This document shows positions 204-42,650 of a stretch of DNA of 64,000 nucleotides, in pieces. A model generated the notes under the pieces. That model was not told the origin of the DNA, made no database searches, and worked only from the letters and a program-made list of their open reading frames with translations. A program made the translations under genes and the position numbers. The stretch lies in contig CACOLY010000004.1 of NCBI GenBank assembly GCA_902628195.1, positions 183 to 64,182 of the forward strand. Direction: 5' to 3'. The DNA is from an uncultured Pelagibacteraceae bacterium. GTDB taxonomy: Bacteria > Pseudomonadota > Alphaproteobacteria > Pelagibacterales > Pelagibacteraceae. Numbering within the stretch: the first letter of the stretch is position 1; each line of letters opens with the position of its first letter.

Positions 204-644
204 TTAAAATTTTATCTCATCTCCGGTATGTATAATTGAAGATGACAAAATTTGGCATCTTAAACCACCTTTTTTTAAAAACTCTTTAATGATATTATCT
301 TGATTTAACATTTCAGAAAGATGTTTGCATGGTCTACATAAATCAATTCCTTCAACTTTTACATTTCCAATTTGAAATTTTTTACCAACAAGATTATTAA
401 GTTTTATTCCTTTTGTAATTATGTTGCGCCTAAAATCTACGTAAGAAATATTTAATCCGAATTTTGTATTATAATTATCAATATTTTCAGACTCTATTAA
501 AGATAGTTGACAGAATGGATCGTTGTAATCATCAAAATGCCTATCACCAACTATACCTTTATCTGCTAAAACTTCTATTGACTCAACCTCTTCAATTTTT
601 TGATTATTACTTTTTGTAATTCCTAGTTTAAAAACTTTAGACAT
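204..644 (-). CDS. MOSC domain protein (molybdenum cofactor sulfurase C-terminal / YiiM-like)
   Basis: GIVGDRH, QLSLIE, RRNIIT and CRPC motifs; GGLRCQILSSSIIHTGD C-terminus typical of MOSC beta-barrels. Confidence 0.85.
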   Translation of the reverse strand: MSKVFKLGITKSNNQKIEEVESIEVLADKGIVGDRHFDDYNDPFCQLSLIESENIDNYNTKFGLNISYVDFRRNIITKGIKLNNLVGKKFQIGNVKVEGIDLCRPCKHLSEMLNQDNIIKEFLKKGGLRCQILSSSIIHTGDEIKF

Positions 645-684: not shown

Positions 685-912
685 ATGAATAAAGAAAATG
701 CTATTAAACTTTGGAAAATAATTCAAAATGCAGGTGATTATCTACAAGGGCAATTACCTGATCATCCTAATCACCCTAAAGGAAGAAATCCTTATGCACA
801 TATTGCAATATGTGTAAAAAATAAATTTAAAGCAAGCTACAAAGATATACCAGATGAAAAATTTCAAGAAGTGATAAAATTTATTGAATTTTTAAAAAAA
901 AATCCAAGTTAA
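685..912 (+). CDS. Small hypothetical protein, possible stand-alone ORF6C-like domain
   Basis: 75-aa ORF fills the gap; TATAAT at 667-672 upstream; KNKFKASYKDIPDEKFQEVIKFIE resembles the ORF6C pattern. Confidence 0.75.
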   Translation: MNKENAIKLWKIIQNAGDYLQGQLPDHPNHPKGRNPYAHIAICVKNKFKASYKDIPDEKFQEVIKFIEFLKKNPS

Positions 913-915
913 TAT

Positions 916-2031
916 TTATTGTTTTGGAAAATAATCTTTTAAACTACCTTCTCTATAAACATCAGCTGTGCAACAATGAAGTCCTCCACCAAAGGCATAG
1001 GCATCACGCAATTCAACTGGAATTACTTCCATTCCAAGTTTATCAAGTTGTTCTGCTTGATACTTTTCACTTTTTTCAACACAAACTGTTTTTGGATCTA
1101 AAACTAAGACATTCATTGAAAGCCAAACAGATGAATAACAAAGTGGTGGTGGCTCATTATGAGCTGGTTGTGCTGCATCAATTATCTTCCATCCATTATT
1201 TTCAAATAATTTTCTTTGATCTTTTGGCAATCTTCTTTGTGGATTATTAATAATTAAACCCTCTTTAATAGGTGTAAAGGTAGCATCAATATGTATTGGA
1301 TAAGGATCTCCTGGAAAGTTTACAGCGTGTATTCTGTGATCTTTGTAATGTCTTTTTAACCAATCTATTCCTTTTAAATTAGTGGTAAAACCATGTTGAA
1401 TTACTAAATCTTTACCAAATCTTAACACATCAGCAGCATCAAATAATGGTTCTTCCTCTGTAGTCACAAAAAATTTATCCTCAGTCCATTTTAATCTTTT
1501 TTGAATGCCTATTTTGTCTGATAAATAATCCTTTCTATAATCAGCATCAGTCAATCTTGGTTTCGGCGCTGACTCGTGCCTCATGTTTGGGTCATTATTA
1601 TAATATTCCTTTAATAAAGGGCGATAACACAAATATTCAAACCATCGACATCTATAACTCATTGTCGCTTCTAAAATTTCATTTCCTACAGTCAATAAAA
1701 CATCTCTAGGTGGCATACATCCAAACATAGTCTCTGCTTTCCAATCAGGAGTTGATGTTTTTTGATTGAAATCAATTGGTGTAGGTCTATCAACTTTAAT
1801 ACCTCTTTTTAATAATATGTTCGAAAAATCGTCCAAAAGTTGGTTTGCTTTATCTACAGTATCCTTAGTTCTGGGGCCAAACTGTCCTCTCATATCTGAG
1901 TCCTCTGGGACCTTTGCATCAAGAGCAGGTTCTGGTGCAGGTATACAAGTACCATCTGCTCTGCCAACTATTACATGTTTAAGTGGATCCCATTCATTCC
2001 AACTGTTTACAATAATTTTATTTTCACTCAT
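916..2031 (-). CDS. Amidinotransferase, glycine amidinotransferase (AGAT)-like
   Basis: NEWDPLKHVIVGRA N-terminus, CMPPRD, FDAAD, HIDATF and GGGLHCCT: the Asp-His-Cys triad of AGAT/StrB1 amidinotransferases. Confidence 0.9.
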   Translation of the reverse strand: MSENKIIVNSWNEWDPLKHVIVGRADGTCIPAPEPALDAKVPEDSDMRGQFGPRTKDTVDKANQLLDDFSNILLKRGIKVDRPTPIDFNQKTSTPDWKAETMFGCMPPRDVLLTVGNEILEATMSYRCRWFEYLCYRPLLKEYYNNDPNMRHESAPKPRLTDADYRKDYLSDKIGIQKRLKWTEDKFFVTTEEEPLFDAADVLRFGKDLVIQHGFTTNLKGIDWLKRHYKDHRIHAVNFPGDPYPIHIDATFTPIKEGLIINNPQRRLPKDQRKLFENNGWKIIDAAQPAHNEPPPLCYSSVWLSMNVLVLDPKTVCVEKSEKYQAEQLDKLGMEVIPVELRDAYAFGGGLHCCTADVYREGSLKDYFPKQ

Positions 2032-2032
2032 T

Positions 2033-3250
2033 TTACCCTTTAATCACATTGTGTTCTGGTCCGAACGGAAACTTAGTGATGTTTTCAGCTCCATCTCTAC
2101 CTATAACTAAAATATCATGTTCTCTATAGCCACCAGAACCAGGTGTTCCTTCTGGAATTAAAATCATAGGCTCCATAGAAATTACCATATTTTCCTCTAA
2201 AATTGTATCTATGTCCTCTCTCAATTCTAAACCTGCTTCCCTACCATAGAAATGAGAAAGTACACCAAATGAATGTCCATAACCAAAAGTTCTGTATTGT
2301 AAATACCCAAGTTCGGCAAATAATTCATTTAATTCATTACAAATATCTGAACACTTTACTCCTGGTTTAATCAATTCAATTCCTCTTTTATGAACTTTTA
2401 CATTTGCTTCCCAAGCTTTTAAAGATTGATTGTCAACAGAATCTAAAAATAAAGTTCTTTCAAGAGCAGTATAGTAACCTGATATCATCGGAAAGGTATT
2501 TAAAGATAATATATCGCCTTTTATTAGTTTACGGTTCGTTTTTGGATTATGAGCACCATCAGTATTAATTCCAGATTGAAACCATACCCAAGTATCCATA
2601 TATTCTGCGTCCGGATAAGTTTTTGCGATTTCTCTTTCCATTTTGTCTCTGCCACTAATTGCAATTTCTAATTCAGTTGCTCCCTCTTTAATATTTTTTA
2701 CAATTTCATCACCACCAATATCAGCTATTCTTGCACCATTTTTAATAATTTCTATCTCTTCTTTAGATTTTATCATTCTTAATTTCATAAGTTTTTTTGA
2801 AATATCTATAAAAATTGAAAATGTAAAAATAGACCCAATCTTATCTTTCATATCTAATGTTATATGATCATTTTCTATCCCAATATTTTTTGGTGGTGCA
2901 TCGCGTCCAATTATTGAAACTATTGCTTTTAAAAAATTATCTCTTTTCCAATCAGTATAAATTACATTATCACAATAAGATCTTCTCCAGGGTTGACTTG
3001 CATCTATATTTGCAGAAATAGTTGAAATTTTATTATTTGTAATAATGCAACCATAAGGTCTACCGAATGAACAATAAATAAAACCTGTATAATAAGCAAT
3101 GTTATGCATTGAGGTTAAAATAATCATATCTAAATTATTTTTTTCCATTACAGATCTTAATTTACTAATCCTTTGATTATATTCTTCGCTTGAGAAAGGC
3201 AATTTTACTTTATCGCCATTTTTTAATGTAAAAAAATCTGGTCGTTCCAT
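2033..3250 (-). CDS. Creatinase (creatine amidinohydrolase, M24 fold)
   Basis: NGDKV..FS..EY, YCSFGRPY, QPWRR, YTDW.RDN, DGAHNP, GHSFGVLSHFYGREAGLELRED and YREHDIL match recalled Pseudomonas putida creatinase motifs. Confidence 0.92.
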   Translation of the reverse strand: MERPDFFTLKNGDKVKLPFSSEEYNQRISKLRSVMEKNNLDMIILTSMHNIAYYTGFIYCSFGRPYGCIITNNKISTISANIDASQPWRRSYCDNVIYTDWKRDNFLKAIVSIIGRDAPPKNIGIENDHITLDMKDKIGSIFTFSIFIDISKKLMKLRMIKSKEEIEIIKNGARIADIGGDEIVKNIKEGATELEIAISGRDKMEREIAKTYPDAEYMDTWVWFQSGINTDGAHNPKTNRKLIKGDILSLNTFPMISGYYTALERTLFLDSVDNQSLKAWEANVKVHKRGIELIKPGVKCSDICNELNELFAELGYLQYRTFGYGHSFGVLSHFYGREAGLELREDIDTILEENMVISMEPMILIPEGTPGSGGYREHDILVIGRDGAENITKFPFGPEHNVIKG

Positions 3251-3260
3251 AAATAAAATC

Positions 3261-4166
3261 TTAATTAAGAGCGATATATCTTTTGTTCCATCTCATAATT
3301 AAACTGTAATAGATAATAGAAACAAAAAGAAAAAAACCACCAACAATAGTATTGGTTGACGGAACTTCATTTATTCCAAATAAAGGCAACCATACCCAAA
3401 AAATTCCACCAATAACTTCTGTTAAAGATAATAAAGTCAATTCTGCTGCTGGAATTGCTTTTGAGCCTATAGAATATAAAATTAAACCTAGACATACTAA
3501 AGTTCCATGTAAGGAAAACATGGTACTATTGTAACTTGTTGCAAAAAATGGTTGATTTTTTGTTAAAATAACCATTGTAGCAACAACAAAACAAAATAGA
3601 CCGGCAATTGCTACTGTCGTAAACTTTGGCGTTTCTTTTCGCCATCTTAGTGTTACAGAAAATATAGAAAATCCTATTGATGAAGTAATGCCAAAAATAA
3701 AACCAATAACAGAATTTTTTTCTGTATTGCCAAATGCCATTATAATTATACCAATAGTTGCAATAAATATTGAAATCCAAACATTCAGAGAAATTCGTTC
3801 TTTTAAAAATAAAAATGCTAATAAAGCTGTAAAAAATGGCATAGCAGCTAAACACAATAAAGTAATCGCTGCTGAAGTATTTGTTATTGAGTATATGAAA
3901 GAAATCATAGCTATGCCTAAACCACAACCGCCTAATAACCCTGATTTACCAATTTTTCTATAATTCTTATAAAAATTTATTCCTTCTTCAAAATATAAAT
4001 AAAGATTTAAAATTATAAATATTGTTAAGCCTCTTCCAAATATATATTGCCAAGGCACAAATTGAGGTTGATCCATATACCTAACCACTAATGGACCAAA
4101 TGACCAAAGTAGGCCTGCAAACAAAACAACCGGAACAGCAATTTTTTCATTTTTAAGTTCAATCAT
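3261..4166 (-). CDS. DMT/EamA family transporter
   Basis: About 10 hydrophobic segments, internal duplication, LFLKERIS motif. Confidence 0.85.
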   Translation of the reverse strand: MIELKNEKIAVPVVLFAGLLWSFGPLVVRYMDQPQFVPWQYIFGRGLTIFIILNLYLYFEEGINFYKNYRKIGKSGLLGGCGLGIAMISFIYSITNTSAAITLLCLAAMPFFTALLAFLFLKERISLNVWISIFIATIGIIIMAFGNTEKNSVIGFIFGITSSIGFSIFSVTLRWRKETPKFTTVAIAGLFCFVVATMVILTKNQPFFATSYNSTMFSLHGTLVCLGLILYSIGSKAIPAAELTLLSLTEVIGGIFWVWLPLFGINEVPSTNTIVGGFFLFVSIIYYSLIMRWNKRYIALN

Positions 4167-4217: not shown

Positions 4218-5468
4218 TTAGGATAAAATTTTATTTGAATGATTTGGAAAAAAACAGTCAACGGTTTCACCTTTTTTAAATTTTGATTTACCTGAAGGAA
4301 GCATTACCCAAATATTAGATTGAATAAACGATTTAATTCTAAACGATTCTTGACCTTTCAAAATATGAACCTCTAATTTACCATTTTTAGTTGTACTCAA
4401 TTTACTTTTTACAAAACGAGTAAAATGTTTTTTTTTTATAAATTCATTTTTTAATATTGCCTTAAAAGAGATTTCTTCTTTAATGCCAAGTAAACTTCTT
4501 AAATAAGGGTATACAAAGAATCTAAAACATGCTGCTGATGAAATTGGATTTCCCGGTAAACCAAAAATAACTTTAGACTTACCTTTTATTTTTGCAAACA
4601 TAATAGGTTTACCTGGTCTTATTAAGACACTTTTAAAATAATTAGACAATTTAAAGTTCTTAATTATTTTAGGAACAAAATCAAATTTACCAGCTGATAC
4701 AGCTCCTGAAGTTACAATTAAATCAATTTTTGAATTTAACATTTTGTTGATATGAGATTTAAATTTTTGACTTTGATTATCTCTTAAAATACCACCATCC
4801 TTAAAATTAAATAAAAAATTTTGATTTAATGAGTGTATGTAATGACAGTTTGAATTTCTTACCTCCCAATCAGAAATTTTTTCCTTTTTTGTAATTTCAT
4901 TCCCAGTTGAAAAAAACAAAATATTTGGTTTTTTTTTAACTTGAATTTTTTTAATTCCTAAAGTTTTTAATGCTAATATATGATTAGATTGTAAAATTGT
5001 TCCTTTAGATATAAGTAATTCACCTTTTTTATAATCAGAACCCTTAAATCTAACATTATCAAACTTTGAAGTTTTTTTATTTAATAAAATATATTTTGCA
5101 TTTTTTTTATTTGGATAAAAATTTATTTGTTCAATAGGTATTATCGTATCTAAAGATTTAGGTATTAATGCACCAGTCATAATTTCAACTGTTTGAAATT
5201 TTTTAATCTTTTTTTTTAGTGGTTTATTACCTGCGGCAATTGTTCCAACAATCTCAAATTTTTGGAGTTTTTTTTTTAAATTAATTGTATCACTAGATTT
5301 AATTGCATAACCATCAAATGATGAATTGTTTGCAGATGGATAATCTGAACTAGAGTAAATATTCACTGAACTTACTCTGTTTAAGCAATTTGATGAATTA
5401 ATAAATTCATTCCCTATTTTAATTTTACCATCTTTTAATATTTTTATTGCTTGGATATAAGATTTCAT
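4218..5468 (-). CDS. moeA: Molybdopterin molybdotransferase
   Basis: NSSFDGYA, IMTGALIP, FSTGNEI, TSGAVSAGKFDFVP, IRPGKP, GLPGNPISS. Confidence 0.93.
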   Translation of the reverse strand: MKSYIQAIKILKDGKIKIGNEFINSSNCLNRVSSVNIYSSSDYPSANNSSFDGYAIKSSDTINLKKKLQKFEIVGTIAAGNKPLKKKIKKFQTVEIMTGALIPKSLDTIIPIEQINFYPNKKNAKYILLNKKTSKFDNVRFKGSDYKKGELLISKGTILQSNHILALKTLGIKKIQVKKKPNILFFSTGNEITKKEKISDWEVRNSNCHYIHSLNQNFLFNFKDGGILRDNQSQKFKSHINKMLNSKIDLIVTSGAVSAGKFDFVPKIIKNFKLSNYFKSVLIRPGKPIMFAKIKGKSKVIFGLPGNPISSAACFRFFVYPYLRSLLGIKEEISFKAILKNEFIKKKHFTRFVKSKLSTTKNGKLEVHILKGQESFRIKSFIQSNIWVMLPSGKSKFKKGETVDCFFPNHSNKILS

Positions 5469-20307: not shown

Positions 20308-20458
20308 ACCCATCTGTATATTTGCCTGAGAGTTTTGCTCCTTCGGCGAGAATTTAATCTCTTTCCAGAGTTAATATGCTACGGTCCTTTTTGCCTGAGA
20401 GATTCCTGGGTGGTTGCTCCTTCGGCGCTACTATCTTCTGTAGTCTCTCCCGTAAAGC
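20308..20458 (-). ncRNA. Tandem glycine riboswitch (two aptamers) in the gcvT leader
   Basis: Minus strand: aptamer 1 GGGAGAGAC...GCGCCGAAGGAGCAA...TCTCTCAGGCAAAAAGGACCG (about 20379-20456); aptamer 2 CTCTGGAAAGAG...CGCCGAAGGAGCAAAACTCTCAGGCAAATATACAGATGGG (about 20308-20371). Both carry the GGAGA/GGAAA, CCGAAGG and CTCAGG signatures. Confidence 0.96.
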
Positions 20459-20484
20459 TATAATCCTACAAGTAGATTAATATG

Positions 20485-21363
20485 TCAATGGGAAATAGTT
20501 TTTTCACTTTTTTTCATAAGTGTATAAAACTGTATTAAAACAGCTAAAAGTATTGTTGCTCCTCCAATTAAACTAAAAATTGAAGGTCTTTCACTAACAA
20601 ATAAAAATGCCCACAAAGGTCCCAAAACAGATTCGGATAGCATTATTATACCAACCATTGCAGACGGCGTAGTTCTTGCACCAATGGTAATAAAAATAAA
20701 TCCAAATCCAATTTGAAAAAAACCAGCTAAGAAACCTAAAAAAATATCATGATAAGAAATCATAATTTTATTTGAAAGAAAGTATCCAATAATACAACAG
20801 CATATACCCGCTACAAATTGCGCGGGAACCATATCAATTGAAGGATATTTTCTTACAATAATAATTAGCACTGCAAATGTAATAGGCATAGAAAAAGCTG
20901 CCAAATTTCCAGTTAACTCTCCAGGAGTTAAGGAATTTCCAACCATGATTAAAACACCAACCATTGCTAAAATTATCGAAAATAATGTTGTAGGGGAAAT
21001 TTTTTCTTTTAAAAAAAAATATCCAAAAACTGCTAAAAATAAAATTTGTAGTGAAATTATGAAATTAGTATTTGCTACAGTAGTACTATACATGGCTACT
21101 ACATAACCACAAAAACCTAAAGACAAAATTACTCCTGCAATAAATCCCGGAAGTCCAGATAAGTAAAATGCATTAAATAATTTTTTTTTGTAAGTAATTA
21201 TTAAAAAAACCAAAACTGTAATGGAGAAAAAAAATGATCGCCAAAATAGTATCTGCCATAAAGTTGCGCCTTCAAAAGATTTAACAATCAGTCCACCAAA
21301 ACTTAAACTTACTGCTCCCAAAAAGACTAAGAAAGGACCAGGTAAATTTTTGATTAAATTCAT
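20485..21363 (-). CDS. DMT/EamA family transporter
   Basis: Ten TM-like segments, FFLKEKIS, SESVLGPLWAFL. Confidence 0.85.
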   Translation of the reverse strand: MNLIKNLPGPFLVFLGAVSLSFGGLIVKSFEGATLWQILFWRSFFFSITVLVFLIITYKKKLFNAFYLSGLPGFIAGVILSLGFCGYVVAMYSTTVANTNFIISLQILFLAVFGYFFLKEKISPTTLFSIILAMVGVLIMVGNSLTPGELTGNLAAFSMPITFAVLIIIVRKYPSIDMVPAQFVAGICCCIIGYFLSNKIMISYHDIFLGFLAGFFQIGFGFIFITIGARTTPSAMVGIIMLSESVLGPLWAFLFVSERPSIFSLIGGATILLAVLIQFYTLMKKSEKTISH

Positions 21364-22307
21364 TAAATTCTAGAAATTAAATTTTGAGTTTCCAATTCAT
21401 ACAATTTAAATAATGTCTCTGCATCAGATAATTCGACTTCTTTGAATTTTATTTTTGATCCTGGCGTAAGTTGTACTAATTTGTCATAATCTGCACTTAT
21501 AACAACTCCTAATTTAGGGTATCCACCAATAGTTCCATGATCAGATAACATTATAATTGGATTACCATCAGCTGGTACTTGTATTACACCTTTTATTAAT
21601 CCCTCAGATTTAATGTTTGTATTAACTATATTTTCAATTTTAGGTCCCTCTAATCTCATTCCCATACGATCTGATAACTTCGATACAGTAAATTCTTTTT
21701 CAAGAAAAATTTTTTTACCTTTTTCTGAAAAGTAGTCAAAATTTGTACCCTTAATAATCCTAATATTTTCAATTTTAGTATTTATATAATCTAATTTATA
21801 ATTATTTAGATTTTCATTTATTTTTGAAATATTTATTTTTTGATTTTCTTCTAATTTTTTTCCATTATTAGCACCTATGTTTGCTTTGGTATTAGTTGAA
21901 CAACTTGCCCATTGATATTTTAAATCTATTTGACCACCAATACCTAAATATCCATAAACAGATTTATTCGTTGAAATAATGTCTAACTCATCACCATTTT
22001 GGATATTAAATGTTTGATAACATTTGCCATCAATAATTATCTCACTTCTTTTTATTTTAAAGTTTACATCGCCAGTTATTGCAATACTTATTTTGTTTCC
22101 GTAGTATTTTAATAAAGGGCCTTGATAAGCAAATTCTATAGCTGGGTGATCTAATTTATTTCCAGTTAATTTATTTACTAACAAGTAATTTCTATTATCC
22201 ATAGCTCCACTAAATGGTATACCTATATGGTAAAGGTTGTTTCTACCTTGATCTTGAAAAGTTGTATTAATCCCTGCTCTCTTAATTTCAAAATAATTTT
22301 TAGTCAT
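21363..22307 (-). CDS. pxpC: 5-oxoprolinase subunit C (biotin-dependent carboxyltransferase / AHS2 family)
   Basis: TTFQD.GR, GIP.SGAMD, SDRMGMRL, GVIQVP.DG.PIIML.D..TIGGYPK. Confidence 0.88.
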   Translation of the reverse strand: MTKNYFEIKRAGINTTFQDQGRNNLYHIGIPFSGAMDNRNYLLVNKLTGNKLDHPAIEFAYQGPLLKYYGNKISIAITGDVNFKIKRSEIIIDGKCYQTFNIQNGDELDIISTNKSVYGYLGIGGQIDLKYQWASCSTNTKANIGANNGKKLEENQKINISKINENLNNYKLDYINTKIENIRIIKGTNFDYFSEKGKKIFLEKEFTVSKLSDRMGMRLEGPKIENIVNTNIKSEGLIKGVIQVPADGNPIIMLSDHGTIGGYPKLGVVISADYDKLVQLTPGSKIKFKEVELSDAETLFKLYELETQNLISRI

Positions 22308-22974
22308 TGTAATTGTTGTATTGATCTTTTGTAATTTCTTTAAAAGAAATTATGTCTCCTGGATTAATCAAGTTTGGATCTTTTTCTTTTGAGTTATTAA
22401 AAATATTCTTTGGTGTGTTGCCTATAATGTTCCATCCTCCAGGACTTTCATATGTATAGATATTTGCAAATTGTTCAGTTAAACCAATAGATCCTTTTGG
22501 TACTTTAACTCTGGGTGTTTCAAGACGTTCAGCTCTCATATTATAATCTAAATCTCCAAGAAATGGCATCCCTGCTATAAAGCCGGTCATATAACAAAAA
22601 AATTCTTTATTAAAAAAATTTTTATAAATATCTTCGCGACTTAAATTCAAAATCTGCTCTAATCTCTTAATATCTAGCGAAAAATTTTCATGAGTACAAA
22701 CTGGGATTTCAATCTTTTTATTTTTCAAATCACTAGAGTTTGTAATTGTTAAGTTTTCAATTATATTTTTTAGATTTTTAAAGTTTGTTTTTTTTAAATC
22801 GAATGAGACTATAAGCTTATTATATGACGGAGTGAGGTTATTTATACCCTCTATATTTTTATTTTGAATACTTTTAAAATATTTTATTACTTGTATATTT
22901 GTTTCTTTGTTAACGTCCTTTCCAAAATCACAATATAAAGCTGCGTCACCAAGATTTAATATATTTTTTATCAT
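22300..22974 (-). CDS. pxpB: 5-oxoprolinase subunit B (AHS1 family)
   Basis: GDAAL, P.YN.L, GF.AG.PFLG, R..TPR..VPKGS.G, SPGGW.IIG.T. Confidence 0.9.
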   Translation of the reverse strand: MIKNILNLGDAALYCDFGKDVNKETNIQVIKYFKSIQNKNIEGINNLTPSYNKLIVSFDLKKTNFKNLKNIIENLTITNSSDLKNKKIEIPVCTHENFSLDIKRLEQILNLSREDIYKNFFNKEFFCYMTGFIAGMPFLGDLDYNMRAERLETPRVKVPKGSIGLTEQFANIYTYESPGGWNIIGNTPKNIFNNSKEKDPNLINPGDIISFKEITKDQYNNYND

Positions 22975-42533: not shown

Positions 42534-42566
42534 ATTGATATTAAATCAAACTATCCTTGGTTGAAG

Positions 42567-42575
42567 TTATCCACA
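42567..42575 (+). promoter_or_regulatory. Perfect DnaA-box consensus (TTATCCACA) in the GFA/umuD intergenic region
   Basis: Exact 9-mer present; function not demonstrated. Confidence 0.4.
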
Positions 42576-42650
42576 AGCATACAAAATGTAGTTTTGATGT
42601 TCACGTTTTGATTCACTTTTGATTCAATTACGGACTCAAAATACAACCTC

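Follow-up and report, generated by a model that had tools for sequence, protein, structure and literature searches.

Creatinase is known from the classical creatininase-creatinase-sarcosine oxidase pathway, and the characterised creatinases are specific for creatine. EamA/DMT transporters such as YddG, RhtA and EamA carry the Pfam EamA repeat in proteins of ~300 aa with ~10 transmembrane (TM) spans. The third relevant family is that of vertebrate arginine:glycine amidinotransferase (AGAT/GATM, EC 2.1.4.1), whose chemistry is a reversible transamidination in which human AGAT and cyanobacterial CyrA accept guanidinoacetate as a donor (PMC4887976), and which relies on a Cys-His-Asp catalytic triad (PMC3684758). 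In SAR11, creatinase has been described as a core gene of subgroup Ia, and creatine-to-glycine genes as enriched in the Red Sea (PMC3686209). A description of an operon joining EamA, creatinase, and AGAT, or of a catabolic amidinotransferase, was not found in the searchable literature, and the SAR11 nitrogen-limitation proteome paper mentions neither creatinase nor amidinotransferase. The subject here is such a three-gene block, encoding an EamA-family permease, a creatinase, and an AGAT-type amidinotransferase, in a 64,000-nucleotide stretch of contig CACOLY010000004.1 (the window; G+C ~28%) from a SAR11 (Pelagibacter) genome with an assembly of 1.02 Mb in 43 contigs that is 93% complete.

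The reading to which we give most weight, and which we hold tentatively, is that the block is a salvage operon. It would take up creatine and guanidinoacetate, with creatinase hydrolysing the former to sarcosine and urea, and the amidinotransferase, running in reverse, converting the latter together with ornithine to glycine and arginine.

Gene order and proteins of the block

The original prediction, made for this stretch from its letters and open reading frames (ORFs), had placed the permease, creatinase, and amidinotransferase genes in the same orientation with gaps of 10 and 1 nt, which is borne out by the ORF list and the junction sequences. The EamA/creatinase junction reads TAA-gattttattt-ATG and the creatinase/AGAT junction TAA-a-ATG, with a Shine-Dalgarno-like AAGGG lying within the 3' end of creatinase, just upstream of the AGAT start. 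A scan for promoters and terminators found no terminator-like sites on the minus strand within the block, but promoter-like sites were rarer than in shuffled sequences, which makes the scan uninformative. RNA control of the block was not detected in an Rfam gathering scan, the only matches in the window being a glycine riboswitch and the SAR11_0636 sRNA, both located elsewhere (Table 1).

The creatinase aligns over residues 4-404 with the P. putida enzyme (PDB 1CHM; E 7e-162) at 58% full-length identity, followed by the other solved creatinases 7YTO (E 4e-158) and 1KP0 (E 9e-148), with the prolidases as the next family at only E 4e-25. Pfam identifies the Creatinase_N and Peptidase_M24 (pita-bread) domains, the NTDGAHNP motif is present, and F62, R64, H232, E262, C298, R335, and E358 are all kept in the alignment to the P. 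putida enzyme, in which His232 is catalytic and Phe62, Arg64, Glu262, Arg335, and Glu358 bind the substrate. The protein can thus be predicted with high confidence to have the function of its family, the cleavage of creatine to sarcosine and urea. The setting differs from that of the known systems. The SAR11 gene has a permease gene on one side and an amidinotransferase gene on the other and is optional within its genus; the classical pathway is matched by a sarcosine oxidase elsewhere in the SAR11 genome, but the locus has no linked creatininase and no urease was found in the genome.

The amidinotransferase matches human AGAT (1JDW/1JDX; E 2e-86, 44% identity) through residues 8-368, corresponding to residues 66-422 of 1JDW, and more weakly the family members SxtG (1e-65), HsvA (3e-59), and StrB1 (4e-51). 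The motifs FDAAD, IHIDATF, and GGGLHC are all present, and the human triad Cys407-His303-Asp254 is kept as C353, H247, and D198. Human Asp170, Asp305, Arg322, and Ser355, the guanidinium- and carboxylate-binding residues of AGAT, are likewise kept as D110, D249, R266, and S301. Judged from its sequence, the fold and catalytic family membership of the protein are secure. The original prediction had noted that both enzymes retain their catalytic motifs (DGAHNP in creatinase; DAAD, HIDATF, and GGGLHC in the amidinotransferase), and the two active sites are indeed intact.

According to the literature, the 300-flap of AGAT bears on lid closure and on the specificity for substrates (PMC4887976, PMC3684758). 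It reads DPYPI in the window's enzyme versus DPNPM in human AGAT and DIFPS in CyrA, with N300 replaced by Tyr and M302 by Ile relative to the human enzyme. This flap is shared without change by 117 of 120 close homologues, and among the representatives of 262 sequence clusters, in nearly each of which the flap differs, DPYPI is confined to this clade. Besides the flap, the SAR11 enzyme differs from human AGAT and from cyanobacterial CyrA/AoaA in having no GAMT (guanidinoacetate methyltransferase) partner or toxin cluster, in being encoded in a block with a permease and a creatinase, and in the direction proposed for it, toward arginine and glycine. Several close homologues (77-84% identical; P0008, P0014, P0032, P0076, and P0115) are named 'serine/threonine protein kinase' by NCBI, probably a systematic mis-annotation by which the family escapes keyword surveys.

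The permease matches Pfam PF00892 (E 2e-17), its second EamA repeat falling below the Pfam reporting threshold, and has ~10 hydrophobic spans with peaks consistent with a 5+5 arrangement. Its best NCBIfam score is 57 bits versus a cut-off of 230, and it differs from YddG, RhtA, and EamA in having no close characterised relative. In all genus-level relatives examined, the gene immediately upstream of AGAT and/or creatinase is an EamA orthologue (57-95% identical). The orthologues do not sort by operon content, being 95% identical between creatinase-only and creatinase-plus-AGAT operons and 88% identical between the window's putative operon and an AGAT-only operon. From this context, we infer that the permease is an uptake carrier for creatine-type guanidino acids.

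Distribution and gene order in SAR11 and beyond

The distribution of the genes was followed in 400 sampled Pelagibacteraceae genomes, 136 of them in the window's genus. Within the genus, an AGAT-type gene is found in 130 of the 136 genomes and creatinase in 75, with AGAT lacking creatinase in ~40%. Coordinate parsing placed creatinase and AGAT on the same strand, 4-20 nt apart, in 79 Pelagibacteraceae genomes, of which 77 have creatinase before AGAT and two have AGAT before creatinase. Exceptions to this adjacency are either contig ends or members of a second creatinase clade (55-69% identical) without AGAT. Genomes of the genus that do not carry creatinase have AGAT directly after EamA, which identifies EamA-AGAT as the conserved core and creatinase as an optional insert. 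The coupling of creatinase to the amidinotransferase put forward in the original prediction thus stands in part: the adjacency recurs in 79 genomes, in two orders and two operon backgrounds, but the conserved unit is EamA-AGAT, and creatinase also occurs without AGAT.

A maximum-likelihood tree of 131 AGAT DNA sequences, quickly made, of low resolution, and drawn from related genomes, requires at least 10 changes of state for creatinase adjacency, and on it creatinase of the window's type always adjoins AGAT. As a rough indication, this points to repeated gain or loss of creatinase beside AGAT. Creatinase genes with an internal TAA stop, or in two pieces, were observed beside intact AGAT in two relatives (G307:C13:40784-41998 and G349:C1:245533-246745), and in some lineages the gene is apparently undergoing decay.

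The arrangement moeA, EamA, creatinase, AGAT is found in the cultured strains HIMB1483, HTCC8051, HIMB123, HIMB4, HIMB1748, and HTCC9565, the layout of HIMB1483 being the same as that of the window. Among the 80 nearest named species representatives, creatinase is present in 51 and absent in 27, and a PF01212 threonine-aldolase-type gene directly follows AGAT in ~26-29; no such gene was found in the window's genome. One example (L083:4619-5668) has as its best NCBIfam match GntG, the guanitoxin pyridoxal-phosphate (PLP) aldolase, at 77 bits and below the cut-off; its score with the model for low-specificity L-threonine aldolase (NF007825, cut-off 312) is 54 bits.

AGAT and creatinase are also found in operons of a different type. 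In genera g4 and g11, AGAT is the first gene of an operon that goes on to encode an EutA-like protein and an M24 hydrolase of DoeA/EutD-like type, followed by an ABC ATPase with a solute-binding protein and permeases. Dependence on a solute-binding protein marks a transporter as an importer. Creatinase directly follows AGAT inside this operon in two genomes, and the place of AGAT is taken by the second creatinase clade in several genomes belonging to three other genera. Genus g9 has, in some genomes, EamA followed by creatinase without AGAT. AGAT and creatinase thus act like front ends that uptake operons can exchange or combine. The EutA-like (205 bits) and DoeA-like (461 bits) proteins both score under the NCBIfam equivalog cut-offs. 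Their combination with an ABC importer resembles the ectoine utilisation genes eutA/eutD (doeA), the shared theme being uptake followed by the opening of an amidine or guanidine solute, but the EutA-like/DoeA-like architecture is absent from the window's locus. An EutA-like (46% identical) and a DoeA-like (71% identical) gene do occur at the end of contig C17 of the same genome (G000:C17:13340-14520), where the contig stops inside the hydrolase gene.

A paralogue of the amidinotransferase (74-75% identical, also with a DPYPI flap) is found in other clusters (L049:1479-9559, L047:3060-10574, and L048). In one genome its neighbours run BHMT, DMGDH-like, AGAT2, a 209-aa S-adenosylmethionine (SAM) methyltransferase, a Rieske oxygenase, a SET-domain protein, and an M24 hydrolase; in others AGAT2 is followed by a second EamA and a 2-oxoglutarate (2OG) oxygenase, beside TauD-type, GMC, and HD genes. 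Outside SAR11, the enzyme clade is rare, being found in 9 of ~397 sampled alphaproteobacterial genomes, in none of which creatinase or EamA lies within 1.5 kb, and AGAT is solitary too in Aliiroseovarius, a Rhizobiales metagenome-assembled genome (MAG), and a 6.3-Mb contig. No pelagiphage copy of the amidinotransferase was found, and the sole viral match is a homologue on a giant-virus MAG contig (IMGVR_UViG_GVMAG-M-3300023174-128_000001; L076:4001-5101), a full-length AGAT-type enzyme with 44% identity.

The proposed salvage route and its alternatives

In the proposed route, EamA would import creatine and guanidinoacetate. Creatine would be cleaved by creatinase to sarcosine and urea, and the sarcosine converted to glycine and a one-carbon (C1) unit by the sarcosine oxidase or dehydrogenase that the genome encodes. 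Since no urease was found, loss of the urea is the probable outcome. Guanidinoacetate would react with L-ornithine on the AGAT-type enzyme, working in the arginine-forming direction, to give glycine and L-arginine. The glycine that SAR11 needs from outside would thereby be set free, both amidino nitrogens would be stored in arginine, and arginine would be obtained without the carbamoyl phosphate and aspartate that its synthesis costs. Under classical specificities the two enzymes have no intermediate in common, which argues for parallel routes rather than a two-step pathway; creatinase and amidinotransferase would be separable modules served by one transporter.

In its metabolic setting, the genome offers a sink for sarcosine through soxB (711 bits) and a DMGDH/SARDH-type gene, and a supply of ornithine, given its ornithine carbamoyltransferase. 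It also has one arginase-family gene, with an agmatinase-level score, and the window itself contains NAD-dependent formate dehydrogenase and glycine-cleavage genes. A human GAMT probe, validated against 3ORH, found no GAMT in the 93% complete genome (tblastn, E<=10), and a GAMT-like gene was present in one of 201 Pelagibacteraceae genomes sampled. This lone gene (G013:C45:21340-22002) is 49% identical to human GAMT and comes from a genome with the AGAT-creatinase order; its contig may be foreign, as the genome is 8% contaminated. Urease alpha was not found in the window's genome; across the genus, 10 of 137 genomes have it. None of the genome's ORFs of >=900 aa has the size and N-terminus of urea carboxylase, a comparison that is a weak substitute for a dedicated search for urea carboxylase/allophanate hydrolase.

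GAMT and urease had been named in the original prediction as bearing on the role of the block, and the failure to find either in this genome, combined with the uptake-type contexts, speaks for salvage rather than creatine synthesis. The direction of salvage is further favoured by the importer-type contexts, the glycine-yielding neighbours, and the known glycine requirement of SAR11. No heterotroph in the sea is more abundant than SAR11, which lives under nitrogen scarcity and depends on glycine or its precursors from outside. If the proposal is correct, a near-core pair of permease and AGAT-type enzyme, often accompanied by creatinase and the threonine-aldolase-type gene, would constitute an unrecognised route by which guanidino compounds of animals and phytoplankton feed glycine, C1, and arginine pools, and would represent the first catabolic, nitrogen-conserving use of an amidinotransferase.

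Several observations weigh against this proposal. The DPYPI flap matches neither characterised Arg:Gly enzyme, so that specificity for glycine/guanidinoacetate is not assured. EamA/DMT carriers are often exporters, and the permease may thus not be an importer. Outside SAR11 the enzyme clade stands alone, with neither transporter nor creatinase, which indicates a basic role that needs no partner. The genomes counted are related and the counts are not independent, and reports of guanidinoacetate in seawater were not found in the literature searched.

The leading competitor, although unlikely, is that creatine itself is the amidino donor (creatine + ornithine <-> sarcosine + arginine). The amidinotransferase would then handle the same imported substrate as creatinase, as an alternative without hydrolysis and with its nitrogen conserved. 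This would suit the finding that, in two different transporter operons, one and the same position is taken by AGAT, by creatinase, or by both, the restriction of DPYPI to this clade among the 262 clusters, and the EamA identities of 95% and 88% across operon types, which suggest a single cargo when characterised creatinases act on creatine alone. A single permease could, however, easily carry creatine and guanidinoacetate alike, the flap Tyr resembles the Phe of the strictly Arg/Gly-specific CyrA, and sarcosine as an amidino acceptor was not found in the literature searched; to our knowledge, no amidinotransferase uses an N,N-disubstituted guanidine or a secondary amine. A seawater tracer study in the Pacific obtained 13C3,15N1-creatine from glycine betaine via sarcosine and postulated an enzyme, as yet unidentified, that makes creatine from sarcosine (PMC9321204). 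That label would arise if an amidinotransferase with creatine as donor worked reversibly; creatinase reversal or labelled methyl passed on via SAM can also explain it. The more specific form of the idea, a shade more doubtful still, is that the DPYPI enzyme is a creatine:ornithine (sarcosine-forming) amidinotransferase, giving arginine and sarcosine from creatine without urea, and that its reverse reaction, a GAMT-free creatine synthesis, is the one sought in the tracer study (PMC9321204). Improbable to a somewhat greater degree is that the enzyme acts on other guanidino compounds and acceptors (taurocyamine/taurine, 3-guanidinopropionate, 4-guanidinobutyrate, homoarginine/lysine, or hydroxyguanidine) as a general amidino scavenger feeding arginine, with an unrelated creatinase beside it using the same permease. 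Promiscuity is common among AGAT-family enzymes (PMC4887976, PMC3684758), the flap, hypervariable in the family as a whole, is specific to the clade here, and the paralogue lies beside TauD-type/2OG oxygenases and a second EamA, or beside BHMT, DMGDH-like, SAM methyltransferase, and Rieske oxygenase genes; one preprint counts SAR11 GATM as the taurine-to-taurocyamine step. Yet all the residues that bind the carboxylate and guanidinium groups of arginine/ornithine are kept, and the pairing that recurs is specifically with creatinase and glycine-yielding enzymes.

A biosynthetic role, in which arginine and glycine would give ornithine and guanidinoacetate (or arginine and sarcosine would give creatine) to be kept as a solute or exported by EamA, with creatinase serving turnover, is very unlikely; the original prediction had offered creatine synthesis and turnover as its alternative. 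It would follow the physiological direction of the reaction in animals and CyrA and the frequent exporter function of EamA-family members, but it would consume glycine in a glycine-requiring organism, GAMT was found neither in the window's genome nor in 200 of the 201 Pelagibacteraceae sampled, and the sister architectures combine solute-binding-protein importers with hydrolases, glycine-producing enzymes being those that cluster with AGAT. Creatine synthesis was rejected as the main reading on the ground that GAMT was not found. The same low probability attaches to the absence of any functional coupling, according to which the packing of a streamlined genome placed unrelated genes side by side. 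Such packing is seen in moeA or moaA/moaE, which lie 2-51 nt from EamA although nothing obvious links their functions, and creatinase and AGAT do each occur alone, AGAT being solitary outside SAR11. Chance packing accords poorly, however, with an adjacency seen repeatedly in either gene order and across two operon backgrounds and two transporter classes, unrelated in each case, with a paralogue that adjoins a second EamA, and with a creatinase of the window's type that always stands beside AGAT despite at least 10 changes of adjacency state on the AGAT tree.

Flanking genes and other features of the window

Table 1. Positions of the block, its neighbours, and further features discussed, numbered along the window
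Feature	Position	Strand	Length	Basis or remark
EamA/DMT-family permease	3261-4166	-	301 aa	ORF list, Pfam PF00892
Creatinase (creatine amidinohydrolase, EC 3.5.3.3 type)	2033-3250	-	405 aa	1CHM homology
AGAT-type amidinotransferase	916-2031	-	371 aa	Human AGAT homology
moeA (molybdopterin molybdotransferase)	4218-5468	-		Pfam MoeA_N/MoCF_biosynth/MoeA_C and NCBIfam
Conserved 75-aa ORF	685-912	+	75 aa	Convergent with AGAT gene; no family match
MOSC-domain gene	204-644	-		Beyond 75-aa ORF
Glycine riboswitch	20372-20462			Rfam gathering scan, 64 bits; upstream of gcvT
Region of the glycine riboswitch that precedes gcvT-gcvH-gcvP, with genes directly upstream	20372-22974	-		
Second EamA-family gene	20485-21363	-		Directly upstream of riboswitch
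SAR11_0636 sRNA	42559-42648			Rfam gathering scan

The block lies ~1 kb from the contig end. On its upstream side, moeA is on the same strand and 51 nt from EamA, so that the transcription unit may begin further upstream; moeA is possibly co-transcribed with the block without being a functional part of it. It is found at this position in 41 of the 80 nearest relatives, and is absent in others, where EamA is divergent from the NifU-like gene. On the downstream side, the 75-aa ORF marks the 3' boundary of the block, its stop codon lying 3 nt from that of AGAT. The ORF has no Pfam or NCBIfam match; copies that are 74-87% identical keep this position in many relatives, also after the threonine-aldolase-type gene where that is present.

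The original prediction had noted that no secondary-metabolite cluster surrounds the amidinotransferase, and the ORF list agrees, as the longest ORF in the window encodes 956 aa and none has the size of a polyketide synthase or nonribosomal peptide synthetase (PKS/NRPS). A role in secondary metabolism was rejected for want of large synthase ORFs in the window.

MOSC-domain genes adjoin AGAT in the window and the AGAT paralogue in another genome (L047:6203-6976). MOSC/mARC enzymes reduce N-hydroxylated amidines and guanidines; the neighbourhood may be a coincidence, since molybdenum cofactor (Moco) genes surround the locus. Elsewhere in the window, the second EamA-family gene and genes for 5-oxoprolinase-type carboxyltransferase subunits lie immediately upstream of the glycine riboswitch, on its strand.

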